Shown here one piece after another: positions 4,264-20,746 of a stretch of DNA of 64,000 nucleotides (the stretch's first letter is position 1; the number at the start of each line of letters is the position of its first letter). The translations under genes and the position numbers were made by a program. Where the stretch lies: positions 3,547 to 67,546 of the forward strand of contig JAUCBJ010003506.1 of the NCBI GenBank assembly GCA_032718475.1, in the 5' to 3' direction. Source of the DNA: Nemertoderma westbladi (taxonomy: Eukaryota > Animalia > Xenacoelomorpha). Below the pieces are notes generated by a model. It was not told where the DNA came from. It was given only the letters and a program-made list of their open reading frames with translations, and ran no database searches.

Positions 4264-4499
4264 CTGCAAGAATAACAAACAATATTGTAAACAATTTGAT
4301 GAGAGTGGCTGGAGACAATGTATTGGATAACAACTGTGATAAAAATACGATCTACTAACAAAAACACGAATCTCTTTTGGATTTTTCCTAATGGTTTCGT
4401 ATTTTCTCATAATCACATTAGTATCGAATCGTATCATGACAGATAGTTCGTATCGCATGCATATCCTTTCCCCGGCAGAACTTTTAAATAAATACTCAC

Positions 4500-4695
4500 A
4501 TTTCACCTTGAATGTAATCAATCCGCTTGTCAACAGTACTCTTAGCCTCCTCGAGATCTTGTTTCACAAGAACCGGCCCAATTAGTTTATATACGTTGGC
4601 ATCGCCCTCCAATATATTGAATTCATTCTTCACCATATTATTCTCATGTAGTTGCCCATCCAGTGTTTGTTTTAGTTGAATAAGTTTTGACAATT
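4500..4695 (-). CDS. PFDN6: Prefoldin subunit 6, coding exon 2
   Basis: Encodes LDGQLHENNMVKNEFNILEGDANVYKLIGPVLVKQDLEEAKSTVDKRIDYIQGE, the diagnostic PFDN6/Yke2 beta-prefoldin motif. Acceptor ttttcag and donor gtgagt. Confidence 0.95.
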
Positions 4696-8389: not shown

Positions 8390-9490
8390 ATCATCATTTG
8401 GCATACTCCAATGCAGCGTGCATTAAGAATGCTATGCAGGCTATGGAGAAAATTGCGCCTCCACAACTCCTTTGACTTCAGCAAAGGAGATATCGTCTCG
8501 CCAATGGGAATATCTGGGAGTACAGACTAGTACACTTTTCTTCTACAAAGTTATCAGAGAATACCCTTTCATTATTGAGGAGCTTGGTTGGAAGTGGGCC
8601 TTTCCAACCATCATCGAGGCGATCAGCTGGTGATTCTGTCTTGACCCTTGAACCTGGTGGTTGGATGGCCGCAGTCATCAAGTTGATCAATGACCCATGG
8701 CTTGGGATGAATGCCTGAGCTCTATTCGGCATCATGCATGACCTCAACCTGCTCGTTGATAAGTTCCTGTAGATTTCTGAGAACTGCTTATTCAGGGTAC
8801 TACAGTAGATGCAACTTTAACTTCAATCTTGGCAGCTGTGTAGTCCGTTTGAGTAGGGACTCTCTTTGTGCCTTAGTGAGATCTTCTCGGCACTTCCAAA
8901 TTCTGTGGTCTGTCCTCTGTCCAGGGTGCCTTTTTCCTGCTTCGAGGGTATACATCAACTGTTTCTGCAGCTGCTCTGCCTTAAGTGCCTCTGTGAAGGC
9001 TTTATAGCCCTCACAATGATCTGTGTTGCCTCAGATACAAGAGCCTCATACCTGTTACTCAGCTGCAGTGTGAAACTGGATCTCACACTGGACTCTTACA
9101 ATAGAGAGGACCAATCATGCCGTGGTAAGGTAGATTTCTTGGTTCTGCTAGCGCGGAGACTAATTTTTACCTTAGTCGCAATAAGACTATGATAACTGGT
9201 GAAGGTGCGAAGAGTAAATTCTGCAGAGTCCTGTATTTCTTACGAAACAGAATTTGGTCTATCTGGGACTTATGTCCACTGGGTCCACTATGAGTCCATA
9301 GCTTTCCAGTTCGCTTCTTGAACTGGGTTGAAACCGAAAACAATCCAATTCCGGAGATGAAATCCTGAAGATGGACTGAATTTCGGTTGCCCATATCGCT
9401 GTAGACCCATGGCGATGTTGAGGAGCGATGGAGTTTGGCAGTAAAGTAACCAAGAAAAGTTAAGCATACATTCTGTAGTTGGAGGCTACT
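8390..9490 (-). mobile_element. RTE-X-like LINE copy A (endonuclease-linker fused to the element 3' end by internal deletion)
   Basis: APE endonuclease motifs (LGYFTAK~GDFNA, KLWTHSGPSGHKSQIDQIL). Near 8470 the linker joins directly to the 3' terminal sequence gagttgtgg.ggcgcaatttt...cattcttaat also seen in copies C and D. Confidence 0.8.
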
Positions 9491-9519
9491 CTCATGTTCC
9501 ACCCCGACCAACCAAGCCT

Positions 9520-10806
9520 TTGGTGAACCTGAGGCAAGTCACTAAACTAGCCTCAATTAATACCCTAACACTCGTGTCCCCAATGCGACAAGGTGAGCTG
9601 ATTGCTTTGGCAGATAAACGTTCTCTTAGCGCAATGGGTTTTCAAGAGCACCCAATGCAGACTGGTCAGCCTGATGAGGTTCTGATTAAGGACAAGGGGG
9701 CGGTTGGAAAACAACTAGTTGAGCCCCAGCAGAGGAGGTGGAAAATTTCTACCACAACCTACAATCAACTACTGATGGAGTAGATCAGCATGCATTCTTA
9801 ACATTCCTGGGAGACTTTAATGCAAGTCTGCACCAATCACCTACATCGCCATCCGCCATGGGTCTATAGCGATAATGTTAACCGAAATTTCGTCAATCTT
9901 CAGGATTTAATCTCTGGAAATGGATTGTTTTCGGCTGTAACCCAATTCTGCAGTTCAAGAAACGAACTGGAAAGCTATGGACTCATAGTGCACCCAGTGG
10001 TCACAAGTCCCATATAGACCATATTATGTTTCGTTAGAAATACAGGAGCTCTATACAAGACAGTAATGCATTAACACTTCGACCCTTCTCCAGTGATCAC
10101 CGCCTTATTGTAGCCAAGGTAAGTCTTAGTCTGCGTGCTAGCAGAACAACGAAATCTGCCTTGCCGCGGCATGACTGGTCCTCTCTGTTGCAACAGCCAA
10201 GTGTGAGATCCAGCTTCACACTACAGCTGAGCAACAGGTATGAGATTTTTGCCTCTGATGCAGCAGATCACTGCGAGGACTATACTGCCTTCACAAAAGC
10301 AGTTAAGTTAGCAGCTGCAGCTGCAGAAACATTTCATGTATACCCTCGAAACAGGAAAAGGGCCCCCTGGACTGACAACAAAATTCAGAATTGCCGAAAT
10401 GACCTCTATAATGCGCAGAAAGAGTCCCGACTCAAACAGGCTACAGCGGCCAATGAACAGGCAGTAATCTGTTAATCTACAGGAACTTATAAACCAATAG
10501 GGAGGTTGATGTCATCAATGATGGCGATGACAGCAGGCAATCATCCCAGGCATGGGAATCGATCAACTTTCTGCCTGGGCGGAAAAGCCAACCAAAAATT
10601 AAGATTAACGCAGAATCACCAGCCGATCGCCTCAATGGTTGGAAGGCCCACTTTGAAAAGCTCCTCAATAATGGTAGGGTATTTATTGCCTGATAACTTT
10701 ATAGAAGTAAAAGTGTCTGACTCTGTACGGTACACCCAGATATTCGCATTGGCGATATCTCCTTTGCTGAAGTGAAGGCTGCTGCAAAGAGCATTAAGAC
10801 CAACCT
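9520..10806 (+). mobile_element. RTE-X-like LINE copy B (endonuclease and linker, decayed)
   Basis: ASINTLTL...GEL...FQEH, FLGDFNA, IDHI, SSDHRLIVAKVSLSLR, LQLSNRYE and WKAHFEKLLN motifs with stops and frameshifts. It is the inverted counterpart of copy A. Confidence 0.85.
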
Positions 10807-11312
10807 CTACTACTACTACGATCGGCATACTGCATTGCAGCTGCATTATATATATATTACATATATATTAATAATGCTGTGCCTGCTTGTCGACTAAATT
10901 GCGCCGCCACAACTCCCTATCACCCATGACATTTGCTAGATCATCCGCATCTACAAGACCACTGTGATTTAACATGCGTCTCAAGAAAGTCATGGGTTGT
11001 CCATCATACTTATTAACTTCATGAGGTAGCCAAAGCACAAGATTATGCACTGGCTGGTTCTCCCAACGAAAGCAATGTCCTGTAAAACGGAGGAGGTTCT
11101 GTTCAAGTCTCAACCTAGGAGAGCCTAATTGAACACCTCCACTGTTGTATAGAGTCTGATTTGAGATGTGTTCATTGTACTTAACACAATGAACCCGGCG
11201 CAGCATTCTTGTGAAAGTACATCCAGAGATTTGGTATCCTCTGCAGTTAGAGCTCAGCATGGACTCCCATACAAGAGTACTGGTATATGCTACTGCAGCC
11301 ATAAATAATCGA

Positions 11313-11631
11313 TGTAATATAATGGTTTTGTTCAGAAATGGAAAAAATGAGAAAGCCGTCACCGGGGGTTGAACCAGCGCTATACGTTAGATATAGGATA
11401 TACCACTTAAAACTGCCTGTTCAATAGAAGTGGATTAGGTGGGAGAGTGAGTGTCAGGGACTAGTGGCTGAACTGGTTAGCGCTACTGATGAGGCCTGAT
11501 AGGCTGAAACGTACGTATAACGCTGGTTCAACCCCCGGTGACGCGCTTTATAATTCTTTCAATTTCTGAACAAAACCATTATATTACATCTTTAATTACA
11601 GTTGCATTAACATCTCAACTCCAATTCATTT
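11313..11631 (+). mobile_element. Short non-autonomous hammerhead-bearing retroelement (Penelope pLTR/retrozyme/SINE-like) with a 5' inverted segment
   Basis: 12-bp TSD ataaataatcga at 11301-11312 and 11632-11643; removing the insert restores LINE sequence LKVRLFMAAV (cf. IKVRLFVAVV at 13463). 11311-11388 is an inverted copy of ~11512-11590. Confidence 0.85.
11479..11524 (+). ncRNA. Minimal type I hammerhead ribozyme
   Basis: Stem I agcgcta/taacgct, core CTGATGA (11486-11492), stem II ggcct-gat-aggct, GAAA (11506-11509), short palindromic stem III ac-gtac-gt, and GUA cleavage triplet (cut after 11517). Confidence 0.85.
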
Positions 11632-12159
11632 ATAAATAATCGAACCTTGAGGTTCCGTTTTATTCTATGGGACTTCCAAATCCTGGACAGACTATTTAAC
11701 GCTGCACATGCCTCCCATTTACGTATCCGAAGGTCTTCCTGCACCTGACTTTATGATCCATGATCCCAAGTTGCAGAAGTCATCCACGTACTCAAACAAG
11801 TCATCCCTGGTGTTTATGCCCTTACGATTAGACATTTCTTCAGGGCTGTCTAGGTTGACTGTCATGATTTTAGTCTTCTTGAAGTTTACAAAAAGACCAA
11901 CACTAGATGCAACCTGATCAAAGGAGCAGAGGAGAATTTGGGCTCCCTCTAGTGATTCTGACGGTACCCCTAAGTAGTCAGCAAAATCTAGACCAGTAGG
12001 CCTTATGTACTTTGCTGCATTTCCTCTGCTTCTTGTGCCAGTAGGGGGTGTTACCCCATCTTTATTAAGATGGTCTAAGGACATAATCAACCACAATTAC
12101 GAATGGTGCCCCCCCCCCCCCCTGAGATCTTTAAAATACTGTTTGGAGCTCATTTATCC

Positions 12160-13905
12160 CAACATTGTAGATATGTACAGAACGATGATTCGACGAAATT
12201 TGTGTCTACTGTTGACGGTGACGCAGAACCATACGAAGTGTAATGGGGAGTTCTCCAGGGAGACACACTTGCACCATTCTTATTCATAATTGCAATTGAC
12301 TATGTTCTACGCATGTCCTTAGATCATCATAATGATGATGGGGGTGATGGTAACTCCACCTACTGGCTCCAGAAGTCGAGGAAATCCTGCCAAGTACCTA
12401 ACTGATCTAGACTTTGCTGATGACTTAGGAGTACTCTCAGAATCACTAGCTGGCGTTGCTTGCGCAACGCGAAAGAAGCTCTCTAGGTTCAGACGACTGT
12501 TCAACTGTCCACCTCTTCGTTCAAGTTACACTCAAAATAATTTATATACATCAATAATGTATATCACATAAATGACCTTTATTATGTTCTCTAAGTGTTG
12601 ATGAACATAAGGCGGCACATAATTATTGACCTTTCAATAAGTTTACTATATTATTAGAAGACCGTTGACTTTTTACTGTAAAAGTATTCGCTATCTATTT
12701 ACCTATCTATGTATGTGTCTATCTATATCGGGTGAACACCTCCGAAGCTATAGCTCGTTCGTCAATGAAAGTTATATCAATCGACGCAGGTCAACCCAAG
12801 GATGTGGAAAAACGTTTTGGAAAAAATTATTAAAGTCTCTTTTTTTATTTCGAAAAATAGCACAATAACACGAAAATTTCCACAGACTCAATGATAGAAA
12901 CACCAGCTGCTGGTGCTGTAAGAAGTGTGTTGTTAAGAAGTGTGTTACAGTACTTGCCAAGTTTATGACTCTATCCCAGGCAAGTAATCAAATATCAACT
13001 GTTACAGTAGTTCGTAATGTATTATCCCGCCAACTGAATAGGTCTTCCCAGTGTACCACTCACTAATAGTTATTATTGTAGTATATTAGGCCTAGACATG
13101 TTATTGTAGCTTTAGCCAATCTGGGAGCTAAATGCCAGTTTTTTTTTATTCACCATCACCATGTTGTTGTCCAGAAATCTGAGGATAAATGGAGACATGA
13201 AAGAAGCTAAGAGCTTCTAAGGGAGCCCAAAGGCAAAGGCTCCTCTGCTCATTGGACCAGGCTGCTTCTAGTGTTGGCCTTTTTGTAAATTCCAAGAAGA
13301 CCAAAATTATGACAGTGAAGATAGACAGCCCTCAATAAATGTCTGATCGTAAGGGTATAAGCTCTAGGTACGGCTTTCTTGATCACGTAGATGACGTCTG
13401 CTACTTGGGATCATGGATCCGGATCATGGCCCAGACCTTCGGAGTCTGTCCAGGATTTGGAAATTAAGGTTCGGTTATTTGTGGCTGTAGTAGTACCAGC
13501 TATAACTATAACGTGGGAGTCCATGCTGGTCTCTAACTGCAGAAGATACAAAATCTCTGCACGGCACTTTCACAAGAATGCGGCGCCGGGTTCATTGTGT
13601 CAAGTACAATGAACACATCTCCAAATCTCTTTATCTCCCTTAGCTCGACTCTTGAACGGAACCGACTCCGCTTTGCAGGATATTGCTTTCGCCGTGAGGA
13701 CCAGCCAGTGCATAATCCTGTGCTTTGGCGCCCTCGTGGAGTGAATAAGCGTGACGGACAGCCCTTAACTTTCTTGAGACGCATCTTAAAGGACACTGGC
13801 CTTGAAGATGCGGATGATCTAGCAAATGTCATGGGTGATAGGGAGTTGTGGCGGCGCAATTTTGTCGACAAGCCAGCACAGCATTCTTAATATATATGTA
13901 ATAGA
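12160..13905 (+). mobile_element. RTE-X-like LINE copy C (RT core to 3' end, interrupted at 12450-13219)
   Basis: GVLQGDTLAPFLFIIAIDYVLR and TDLDFADDL (RT domains typical of RTE-X), then GLFVNSKKTKIM, RLRFAGYCFRR, DRELWRR. It is the inverted counterpart of copy D. Confidence 0.9.
12450..13219. mobile_element. ~770-bp unclassified insertion within LINE copy C
   Basis: It splits gaatcactag|agggagccc, which is contiguous in copy D. A hairpin gcgttgc-ttgc-gcaacgc lies at the left end, and aaagaagct occurs near both ends. Confidence 0.6.
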
Positions 13906-14600
13906 TAAAGGAAATTCACACCCGGAAAAAAGGGAAAATGCCAAGGAAAAGCATCATACCACCGAAAATATTTTTGACATCATGGAACTAATGCACAATT
14001 TATCGGAAAGAACTGCAAATGTGTGTTGCTTGCTTTTGCTTCGCTCGTATTTTTCTTTTTAAATAGTTTAAAGTTTAAAAGATTACTTACAAATATTAGT
14101 GATAAAATAATAAAATGCACTTTGACTTCCTCCATAAATCTTTTAATCTCATATTTTGTGAACGTTTTACGGTTTTGAAGTTTTTGAAATTTACTAGAAA
14201 TGGCACAGAGGTGACCTACATGGGGGAAGAGTCAAAAAGCCACGAAGTGACAAACAAACATTCAATCGACTCACTTTATTTATTGCTCGTAATATGCTAC
14301 GGGTAGATTACAGTATATGTTACCTTACTGTATGAAGTAAGGAGAAGTAGGCCTACAGCGATGCGAGCACAATCATTTTAAATTTTGTTAATCGCAACAT
14401 TGGAATCTAGCTGCTTGCATTGACCATGCTATGCGTACATTTAATTATTAATGCCATTTAAAAATAAGGAGTGAAATTAACACGTATAAGGGGGGCCTAC
14501 CGTTCAACTTATGTGGGTAGAGTATACAGAAGTAACAAGTAAAGTTTACAAGATATGAGATATCCAAGTACAAAAAGCTGTAATAACTATTTACATACAG

Positions 14601-16086: not shown

Positions 16087-17826
16087 ATGGCAAAACCGGG
16101 GATGCACAAAAAAGCAAGCAAAAGAACTCCATTGCGTACAAAATACAAGATACAACGTAAAGTGAAGCAGCATCTGAAGAAAACAAAAAAAGAGAATCGA
16201 GGAAAATCTAAATTGCAAAAACGGCGTAAAGATCCCGGGATTCCTAATGACTGCCCATTCAAGGAAGATATATTGACAAGTGTGAAACTGCAACGCGATC
16301 AGAACGAGGCAGAAAAACAAACGCGGAAAGAGAAAATACGACTTGAGAATAAGTTGCGAAGCAAAGGGAAACGCTTAGATGCGGTGAACAAGTTACGGAA
16401 TATAGATGGACTCGGAACGAAGGATCCCGGTAGGCTTAAAAACCTCGGTGTAACAGTGAGTGGCAACGTCGATGTAGAAGCTGACCCGCACATCGCAGAC
16501 GCCAGTTCCTCCACGCGTCGCGCCTTCTTCAAACACGTCAAGAAAGTTATCGAAGCATCCGATGTTGTGCTCGAGGTCCTCGATGCTAGGGACCCCGATG
16601 GCTGTCGTTGCAAGAGCGTGGAAGACATGATTATAAGCGATTCAACTAAACGACTTGTCCTCGTACTCAACAAAGTCGATTTAGTTCCTGGAGAAGTCGT
16701 AGAGAAATGGTTGAAACATCTCAGACAGACATTTCCGGTGGTCGCTTTCAAGGCGTCTACTCAGGAGCAGCGATCGAGATTAGGTCACTCCAGTTCGAAG
16801 GGGAAACACGCTGGATTATCGAGCGTCGTCCCCAAGTCGAGCACCTGTTTCGGAGCGTCGAATCTTCTCCGTCTCCTCGGCAACTACACCCGGAACCGGG
16901 GTATCCGTGGTTCCGTCACGGTCGGTCTCATCGGGTTCCCGAACACCGGGAAAAGTTCCCTCATCAACAGCCTCAAACGCTCCAGGGTCTGCGGAGTGGG
17001 GGCAGCGCCTGGTGTCACCACCGTCAGTCAGCGGGTCAAACTGGACAAACACGTGACCCTCCTGGACAGTCCCGGTGTCATAGTAACCTCGGGCTCGCGT
17101 TCGCAACTGCTGCTTAAGAACTGTATCAGTGTGGACGATGTCGCTGATCCTTTAGCCGCGGTTGACGAGGTGATTAAACGATGCGGCGCCGCGCAGCTCA
17201 TGGCGTTGTACAAACTCCCTGAGTTCTCTGACGCCTCAGAGTTCGCAGAAGCCCTGGCTCGGCGGCGTGGTTGCTTCAAGAAGGGCGGGGTTCTGGACAC
17301 AGATAGGGCGGCTAGACAGCTGCTCAGGGACTGGGTGTCCGGCTGTCTGCGGTACTACTGCGACCCACCAAGTACTCCCGAATTATTGTCGTCTTCCGAT
17401 GTGACTTTGGTTTCGAAGTGGCGGGACGAATTCGATTTGGATTCGCTGCTTAAAGTCGAGGGTAAAGAACTTAGAGGGGTGACAGCCCTTAACGATGGTC
17501 TTGTTGTTCCTACTGATGGACCTTCAGAAGATATTCCGGAGTTGGTCGCTATCGATGACAATGAAGTAGAGGATGTTGATGCAGAAGATGTTGAGATGGT
17601 GGATGCGGACTGTAAGATTCGTAAAATTAACTTGGTTTCAAAATCGAAGAAGAAACTCAGCCAAACGGATTACATTCGGCCTAAAGTGAGAACCACAGGG
17701 GCCAATCTGCAGCTGAATAAAGCGAGGAAGTTGGAAGCCAAGAAATTGTCAAAGAAGAAGAAAAAGTTTGAGAAATTAGAGAACAATCTACCTGAACTGA
17801 TTTCTGATGGTTTGAAGTTTATGTGA
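16087..17826 (+). CDS. GNL3: Nucleostemin/GNL3-family nucleolar GTPase (579 aa), intronless, nested in CCDC33 intron 1
   Basis: Basic GN3L/Grn1 N-terminus (KKASKR...KYKIQRKV...KDPGIPNDCPFKEDIL), circularly permuted GTPase motifs G5 DARDP, G4 NKVD, G1 GFPNTGKSS, G2 GVT, G3 DSPG, and an acidic then basic tail. Intact ORF. GNL3 versus GNL3L orthology is not resolvable here. Confidence 0.93.
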   Translation: MAKPGMHKKASKRTPLRTKYKIQRKVKQHLKKTKKENRGKSKLQKRRKDPGIPNDCPFKEDILTSVKLQRDQNEAEKQTRKEKIRLENKLRSKGKRLDAVNKLRNIDGLGTKDPGRLKNLGVTVSGNVDVEADPHIADASSSTRRAFFKHVKKVIEASDVVLEVLDARDPDGCRCKSVEDMIISDSTKRLVLVLNKVDLVPGEVVEKWLKHLRQTFPVVAFKASTQEQRSRLGHSSSKGKHAGLSSVVPKSSTCFGASNLLRLLGNYTRNRGIRGSVTVGLIGFPNTGKSSLINSLKRSRVCGVGAAPGVTTVSQRVKLDKHVTLLDSPGVIVTSGSRSQLLLKNCISVDDVADPLAAVDEVIKRCGAAQLMALYKLPEFSDASEFAEALARRRGCFKKGGVLDTDRAARQLLRDWVSGCLRYYCDPPSTPELLSSSDVTLVSKWRDEFDLDSLLKVEGKELRGVTALNDGLVVPTDGPSEDIPELVAIDDNEVEDVDAEDVEMVDADCKIRKINLVSKSKKKLSQTDYIRPKVRTTGANLQLNKARKLEAKKLSKKKKKFEKLENNLPELISDGLKFM

Positions 17827-20438: not shown

Positions 20439-20746
20439 TGGCGCCTTACTGTGGCGCCTTTACTGTGGTGCCTTACTGTGGCGCCTTTACTGTGGCGCCT
20501 TTACTGTGGTGCCTTACTGTGGCGCCTTACTGTGGCGCCTTTACTGTGGCGCCTTACTGTGGCGCCTTACTGTGGCGCCTTTACTGTGGCGCCTTACTGT
20601 GGCGCCTTTACTGTGGCGCCTTACTGTGGAGCCTTACTGTGGCGCCTTTACTGTGGCGCCTTACTGTGGCGCCTTACTGTGGCGTCTTACTGTGGCGTCT
20701 TACTGTGGCGCCTTACTGTGGCGCCTTACTGTGGCGCCTTTACTGT
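20439..20746. repeat. 14/15-bp GC-rich minisatellite (tggcgcctt[t]actg)n, ~21-22 copies
   Basis: Read directly from the sequence. It ends ~34 nt before the CCDC33 exon 2 acceptor. Confidence 0.95.

Follow-up and report, generated by a model that had tools for sequence, protein, structure and literature searches.

How does a hammerhead ribozyme come to lie between the A-box and the B-box of a tRNA-like promoter? A short insertion in the genome of Nemertoderma westbladi raises this question. To our knowledge, hammerheads occur here and there across genomes, and for most of them the origin cannot be traced; if a ribozyme were colinear with a tRNA in a multi-copy family, the copies would form a natural series that could reveal the individual steps. 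We analyzed a window of 64,000 nucleotides (assembly GCA_032718475.1, contig JAUCBJ010003506.1, positions 3,547 to 67,546 of the forward strand; coordinates below are those of the window, on its plus strand unless noted) in which genes and repeat relics occupy the first 21.6 kb and satellite the remaining 42 kb. The insert occupies 319 bp (11313–11631). We consider it reasonably probable that it is a head-to-head insertion bordered by a target-site duplication (TSD), likely of a 5′-truncated Penelope terminal repeat, with the hammerhead inside a segment that is likely derived from a tRNA.

The insert is bounded by two exact copies of a 12-bp sequence (11301–11312 on the left and 11632–11643 on the right). 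Logan contigs of the surrounding host repeat skip the insert, and because such empty sites exist the 12-bp sequence is confirmed as a target-site duplication, bearing out an earlier description of a TSD-flanked insert that had been made from the letters of the window (hereafter the sequence-only reading). The host's inverted partner carries one similar copy of the same 12 bp. Within the insert, two arms are joined head-to-head. The inverted arm (11313–11387, minus strand) is a 5′-truncated copy of 11513–11588, with 70 of 75 aligned bases identical and 1 gap; as had been proposed for it, it retains both an intact T6 run (visible as A6 at 11342–11347 on the plus strand) and a fully pairing 3′ strand of stem I, along with a second B-box at 11365–11375. 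The direct arm (11388–11631) is likely a 5′-truncated terminal-repeat unit of its family, and is covered end to end by many contigs from four runs, while some family contigs continue for 294 nt past 11386 into other sequence. Alignment of the arms leaves 41–43 extra bases at the 3′ end of the direct arm (11589–11631).

The surrounding host (10851–13907) is a decayed, high-copy, LINE-like reverse-transcriptase relic with inverted arms, and represents the insertion site, not a part of the element. It gave weak RVT_1 matches (E 0.05–0.07) and contains a FADD-type motif; a protein search with a host-repeat fragment returned no match at E 1e-5, and a PDB sequence search returned non-significant matches only. 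Relics of this kind extend over 8422–13907 as nested inverted arms that are 74–86% alike (8472–9475 with 9786–10776; 10851–11940 with 13234–13907; 11949–12084 with 12313–12449).

Penelope-like insertions are described as having an inverted 5′-truncated copy, a tail of 30–40 bp at one end and AT-rich targets (PMC8557442, PMC11167929, PMC3846280, in their accessible portions), with TSDs of 8–10 bp in the Penelope-like elements (PLEs) of Adineta (PMC3846280, PMC8557442). The insert displays a head-to-head inverted 5′-truncated arm, a one-sided tail (41–43 nt, slightly over the published 30–40 bp; PMC8557442, PMC11167929) and a short TSD of 12 bp, and it sits in an AT-rich target. We therefore read it as a Penelope-type insertion on the basis of its inverted arm, its tail on one arm and its AT-rich target; the link to Penelope suggested previously is thus supported by the geometry of insertion, with no Penelope ORF, full-length parent or tandem array present within the 64-kb window. 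PLEs with a type I hammerhead in their terminal repeat (pLTR), namely Penelope/Poseidon and Neptune (PMC4209133, PMC3846280, PMC8557442, PMC11167929), share the inverted truncated arm joined head-to-head, the tail on one arm, the short TSD and the AT-rich target, and likewise carry a type I hammerhead with a palindromic helix III near the 3′ end. In contrast to the window element, the accessible text of these four papers describes no tRNA boxes around the hammerhead, the promoters being TATA/Inr-like or located in the pLTR; the window element further differs in that no ORF was found for it in the window and that its helix II is short, unlike the min-HHR.

The ribozyme itself is a complete type I hammerhead (11479–11524) positioned between an A-box (11465–11476) and a B-box (11525–11535), with a CUGANGA core, GAAA, an NUH triplet and stems I–III in type I order. 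The 5′ strand of stem I (11479–11485) lies within a self-complementary 8-mer (11478–11485) and is followed by the catalytic core CUGAUGA (11486–11492), by stem II and loop 2 at the position of an anticodon arm (11493–11505), and by a block (11506–11517) containing GAAA (11506–11509), the palindromic stem III (11509–11516) and GUA (11515–11517). Cleavage is predicted after GUA, between 11517 and 11518. The 3′ strand of stem I (11518–11524) is a near-direct repeat of 11478–11484, and forms six of seven pairs with the 5′ strand in the window copy. The sequence-only reading had reported a type I hammerhead with a palindromic stem III and a GUA triplet, all of which we found. It had also called the motif minimal, and here our assignment differs. 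According to the accessible text of PMC4209133, canonical metazoan type I hammerheads have a helix II of 4 bp and a helix III of 1–2 bp with a palindromic loop; by the definitions given there the motif is, as judged from its sequence, of the canonical metazoan type I and not of the min-HHR class found in PLEs, its helix II being 4–5 bp and its helix I 7 bp long, with no extra nucleotide.

A pairing-aware hammerhead descriptor matched the non-satellite 21.6 kb once, at this motif, and produced no match in 400 Markov resamples. An Rfam scan of the window returned no match at the gathering score, and the motif matched RF00008 only below it (16.5 bits, E 1.1). A match to MIR869 was set aside, because it reflects the inverted arms. 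The window copy folds weakly (z −0.49 and z +1.28), and stems I and II together account for 0.03% of its ensemble because the copy has mismatches of its own. The stem III palindrome forms a self-duplex of −9.8 kcal/mol, in agreement with the earlier view that it suits dimers; in the lowest-energy dimer of the core, however, stem II takes part in the pairing along with stem III, and this differs from the active fold.

We surveyed the family in Logan DNA contigs from four runs (X1–X3 and X5) that represent at most three samples and three studies, one of them possibly the source of the window. The insert is covered in X1 at a summed depth of 40k–342k, versus 13–134 for single contigs, and single alleles were found in approximately 100 contigs. 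We infer that hundreds to thousands of family copies exist, summed depth not being a copy number. The presence of the family in contigs of four runs and three studies agrees with the proposal of a multi-copy retroelement. All statements about alleles rest on the 40 differences listed of 113. Among those 40, four fall between the boxes. A G at 11520 (94–99.6% of depth) restores stem I to seven of seven pairs, as does pairing with the inverted arm; a C at 11505 (58–84% of depth) converts a G-U pair of stem II into G-C; A/T variation at 11499 lies in loop 2 and keeps the fold; and A/G variation at 11472 keeps the purine of the A-box and its pairing. All four thus fit the hammerhead fold, with no two-sided compensatory change among the 40 differences. 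The core, stem III and the B-box are untouched by the 40 differences listed of 113.

The joints between family sequences are also informative. A joint between opposite strands at 11403/11463 was observed in all four runs, and X5 additionally contains inversion joints at 11347–11510 and 11382–11463 and a loose end that matches the reversed tail. A head-to-tail (tandem) joint is absent from the 15 joints listed of 237, and the window holds a single unit.

Both promoter boxes that had been proposed are present, in the order and at the spacing found in tRNA genes. Taken by itself, the A-box pattern carries little weight, as it matches 3 times in the window where 0.78 matches are expected. The B-box, which also forms the 3′ strand of a distal extension of stem I, matches twice in the window, once on each arm, where 0.03 matches are expected; the pair of A-box and B-box matches once in the non-satellite 21.6 kb and never in 300 resamples. 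The A-box together with a run resembling a tRNA D-loop (11465–11483) is identical at 16 of 19 positions to ten tRNAs of giant viruses whose body is of Asn type; part of the motif had served to select this panel. Positions 11469–11473 of this run pair with the B-box, and 11479–11483 begin stem I. At 18 nt past the B-box lies the T6 position of the family (11554–11559), which may be a Pol III terminator or the pyrimidine tract of an intron and is broken in the direct arm. In X1–X3 an intact T6 results from the alleles 11550 C, 11552 C and 11556 T, whereas the main variant of X5 differs there; 11556 T makes up 95–98% of depth in X1–X3 and 20% in X5.

A Pol III transcript would be expected to span approximately 11457 to the T6 at 11559, and would lack the upstream repeat and the last 70 nt. 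The repeat upstream of the predicted start (11388–11456) has a summed depth of 40k–187k in X1, of the same order as the core. Because T6 falls about 70 nt short of the 3′ end and the repeat extends upstream of the A-box, such an RNA is unlikely to be the template that is copied, and the notion of a Pol III-driven retroelement, which would moreover be cut between its own boxes, was not upheld. An unlikely alternative would keep Pol III as the driver of a SINE or retrozyme, by starting near 11457 and reading through T6 or into a tandem neighbour, with the cut RNA then copied in trans. The boxes are both intact in the family as far as the listed differences go, their spacing is tRNA-like, T6 follows 18 nt after the B-box, and such a model has been proposed for the schistosome repeat Sm-alpha (PMC6765202, accessible text). 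In X5, one contig with a depth of 1108 sets in some 5 nt ahead of 11463, close to the predicted start; it is a faint hint of a subfamily beginning there, since contigs break at any variant. Against these points, the family covers 70 nt or more upstream of the A-box at comparable depth and its T6 comes ahead of the final 70 nt, so that two marks of a tRNA-derived SINE, a start at the tRNA 5′ end and a body free of Pol III terminators up to the 3′ end, are lacking; cleavage at 11517 would divide the promoter; the window has no tandem copy; and the inverted arm and one-sided tail are a PLE signature.

We then considered the origin of the boxes, using comparison panels composed of viral tRNAs, not Nemertoderma's own. 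A pattern built from the A-box/D-loop and B-box of the window retrieves tRNA genes: ARAGORN called tRNAs at 117 of 120 matches in 119 viral loci. By isotype, the 120 matches to the pattern without GAAA are Ile-GAT (39), Ile-TAT (28), Asp (23), Met (10), Asn (7), other (10) and none (3); an anticodon-free pattern that includes GAAA finds 17 tRNA-Asn and 4 others among 21 loci. A pattern of three window motifs matched tRNA genes in 18 of 18 cases (17 Asn-GTT and 1 Ile-GAT), and in those 18 loci the anticodon loop aligns with loop 2 and nt 41–44 with GAAA; this pattern is not an independent test, because it was picked with the likeness already in mind. For the pattern without GAAA, Ile-GAT and Asn-GTT tie at the top and the isotype is not fixed, a tie that matches the two common alleles at 11499. 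One viral tRNA in these searches (L010:134–208) has an Asn-type body and a GAT anticodon, likely the result of an anticodon switch. From these sequence comparisons, we conclude that the segment around the hammerhead is likely tRNA-derived.

Whether that derivation includes the ribozyme is a finer question. The centred hexamer of loop 2 equals the anticodon-loop hexamer of either Ile-GAT or Asn-GTT, depending on the allele at 11499; its occurrence within the panel's 16 anticodon-loop hexamers has a P of 0.005 under a flat null. Loop 2 of other hammerheads ends in RNYA, and if that ending is imposed P becomes 0.02. The RNYA loop motif was not found in the accessible text of PMC6155905, although the RF00008 consensus has a loop of this kind, which weakens the case for descent from an anticodon arm. 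The best score for the whole middle has a P of 0.10 (maximum over the panel, 72 middles), which supersedes an uncorrected P of 0.0055. With P between 0.005 and 0.10 according to the null, we regard it as about evenly balanced whether stem II descends from an anticodon arm of Asn/Ile type. The statement that the ribozyme replaces the anticodon arm is accordingly correct as to position, while stem II may instead be a descendant of that arm, for which the evidence is suggestive only.

These comparisons permit a bolder proposal, which we put forward tentatively and think rather doubtful as a whole: that the hammerhead was built out of the tRNA, and that the retained boxes yield a 100-nt Pol III RNA serving as partner in trans for dimeric cleavage of the long retroelement transcript. 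In that case, a tRNA of Asn/Ile class would have supplied stem I (from the old D-stem strand), stem II (from the old anticodon arm) and GAAA (nt 41–44 of tRNA-Asn), and the sole additions would have been the CUGAUGA box and, within the variable region, a short palindromic insert.

The tRNA fold itself has been lost. In the tRNA register the window forms two of four D-stem pairs, three of five T-stem pairs and three of seven acceptor pairs, which yields no cloverleaf, and ARAGORN called no tRNA in the window; the tRNA-like fold of the sequence-only reading is not borne out. The D-arm that it had drawn, in a register that omits the A21-equivalent, represents about 1% of the ensemble, and that D-arm combined with stem II and T-loop closure only 4e-8. 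Free folding instead pairs the A-box strand with the B-box strand. The suggested switch, in which the D-arm competes with stem I, was rejected on these energetic grounds. In the window, nucleotides 12–16 of the tRNA register complement the B-box exactly, as they do in none of 120 control tRNAs, and this complementarity is created by the three A-box positions that differ from Asn-type tRNAs. On these models, the cloverleaf of a tRNA has likely given way to a long stem I.

The same pairing could be viewed from the opposite direction. The element might be an ordinary autonomous Penelope pLTR with no tRNA in its ancestry, in which the B-box arose by chance and the A-box followed from obligatory pairing with it. 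Positions 11453–11485 are indeed largely complementary to 11518–11542, neither ARAGORN nor Rfam makes a tRNA call and no cloverleaf forms, and loop 2 of the window is similar to the consensus loop of RF00008. We nevertheless think this explanation quite improbable, given the rarity of the B-box and of the box pair quantified above and the tRNA-like order, spacing and T6. Furthermore, T8, C11 and the GGTT bulge are not set by pairing, yet they agree with the tRNA (within the 16 of 19 matching positions).

Under our preferred reading of a Penelope terminal repeat with a tRNA-derived segment, a tRNA gene with a D-arm of Asn/Ile class would have been taken into the repeat and its cloverleaf converted to a rod. 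The 3′ strand of the old D-stem would have become part of stem I, the A-box would have been altered to pair with the B-box, and stem II would occupy the old anticodon-arm site. Their present part in forming stem I is likely why the boxes are kept. A longer RNA would be transcribed, probably by Pol II, from copies lying upstream or in tandem; such a transcript is described for Penelope in the accessible part of PMC2377424. This RNA would be cut when two hammerheads pair through their palindromic stem III, and would then be copied and inserted by a Penelope RT/GIY-YIG protein. The boxes may still drive an RNA of about 100 nt that ends at T6, as a side product or trans partner, not as template. 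Cleavage by the hammerhead is a prediction of this scheme; against it stand the inactive fold of the lowest-energy dimer, the damage to the window copy and, in an anole PLE, the dispensability of hammerhead cleavage for insertion in vitro (PMC11167929, accessible text).

A different role for the 3′ part of the repeat would leave the boxes as dead tRNA relics. In this improbable alternative, a PLE gene starts at an ATG at 11489 within the core and is interrupted by a GT-AG intron (11538–11601) that includes the T6 tract. Sixteen open codons run from 11489 to the GT at 11538, and after the AG at 11600–11601 nine more follow in a matching frame; of the six differences that separate the arms, five lie in the candidate intron; and pLTRs include the first codons of an ORF and can hold introns (PMC3846280, PMC11167929, PMC4209133, accessible portions). 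However, the donor is weak and the frames are short enough for chance, the tail variant of X5 apparently has an in-frame stop (seen by eye in a single loose end), and the ORF of the anole element begins after the core, not within it (PMC11167929). If the boxes are only a relic, the element would be an unusual Penelope terminal repeat of modest interest.

Engineered hammerheads in tRNA scaffolds exist. Natural elements that combine some of the same parts include the schistosome repeats Sm-alpha and Sj-alpha (PMC6765202, PMC2770079), in which a tRNA-derived Pol III promoter and a type I hammerhead share a short repeat. The sequence-only reading had placed the hammerhead of Sm-alpha downstream of the B-box, in agreement with the accessible text of both papers, where it follows the promoter and the head is sufficiently preserved to be called by tRNAscan as tRNA-Gln-TTG; in the window, by contrast, the boxes enclose the hammerhead and no cloverleaf is left. 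Metazoan non-LTR retrozymes (PMC7229834; bioRxiv 10.64898/2026.07.22.740005) resemble the window element in their non-coding unit of 170–400 nt, canonical type I hammerhead, TSD of more than 4 bp and probable dependence on PLEs, but are defined by tandem repeats and circular RNAs, and the window contains no tandem unit. The accessible text on retrozymes (PMC7229834, PMC11722881, bioRxiv 10.64898/2026.07.22.740005) mentions no tRNA boxes, the term 'tRNA' giving no match in that of the preprint. Helenus non-autonomous LTR elements (PMC10886601) have likewise captured tRNA-derived A- and B-boxes in a terminal repeat; they are of LTR type, with PBS/PPT and a TSD of 4–5 bp, and are described in the accessible text without a hammerhead.

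Full-text searches turned up no natural hammerhead enclosed by A- and B-boxes; such a case may exist in subscription journals, in Repbase or Dfam, or in figures and supplements. The nested layout of tRNA boxes and hammerhead is unusual, while PLE hammerheads and repeats with tRNA boxes plus a hammerhead are already known. A Pol III promoter and a self-cleaving motif, which in retroelements usually stand side by side, are joined here in a single module of 70 nt. This module offers a testable answer to the question of where dimer-dependent hammerheads obtain their partner, and the nested layout may illustrate the conversion of a tRNA into a ribozyme.

A search of viral contigs, metagenomes and prokaryote genomes with one exact pattern, a hammerhead followed by a B-box, gave 0, 6 and 5 loci, respectively. 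Seven of these 11 matches were dismissed as chance because they are without stem II, and the nested type I layout is absent from all 11. The other four represent one type III repeat (L002:29–126, also in L003, L004 and L006) found at the ends of four contigs from a single metagenome. Each copy has a different 3′ flank, one of which looks like an intron-containing fungal gene; the repeat is likely fungal. Its hammerhead scores 27.6 bits against RF00008 (E 0.004, below gathering) with a predicted triplet of GUU, its stem I hairpin is similar to a tRNA D-arm and contains a weak A-box, and downstream a hairpin like a T-loop carries a B-box. This repeat would be a second natural chimera of tRNA boxes and hammerhead, in another topology, and under the bolder proposal above it suggests a route that recurs.

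Elsewhere in the window, an intronless gene at 16087–17826 (plus strand) encodes a GTPase resembling GNL3/nucleostemin, with at most 47% identity among the 120 matches listed and marine invertebrates at the top; the divergence of this protein sequence likely reflects a long-branch animal host. On the minus strand, an exon of a prefoldin subunit gene (PF01920) is located at 4499–4693, and a 245-codon open frame at 1718–2455 contains a hydrophobic N-terminal stretch and several cysteines and has no Pfam match. A minisatellite with 23 copies of a 13-bp unit (20439–20746) precedes the 42-kb satellite (21611–64000), which consists of a 22-bp unit with a higher-order period of 135 bp and a strong strand skew.
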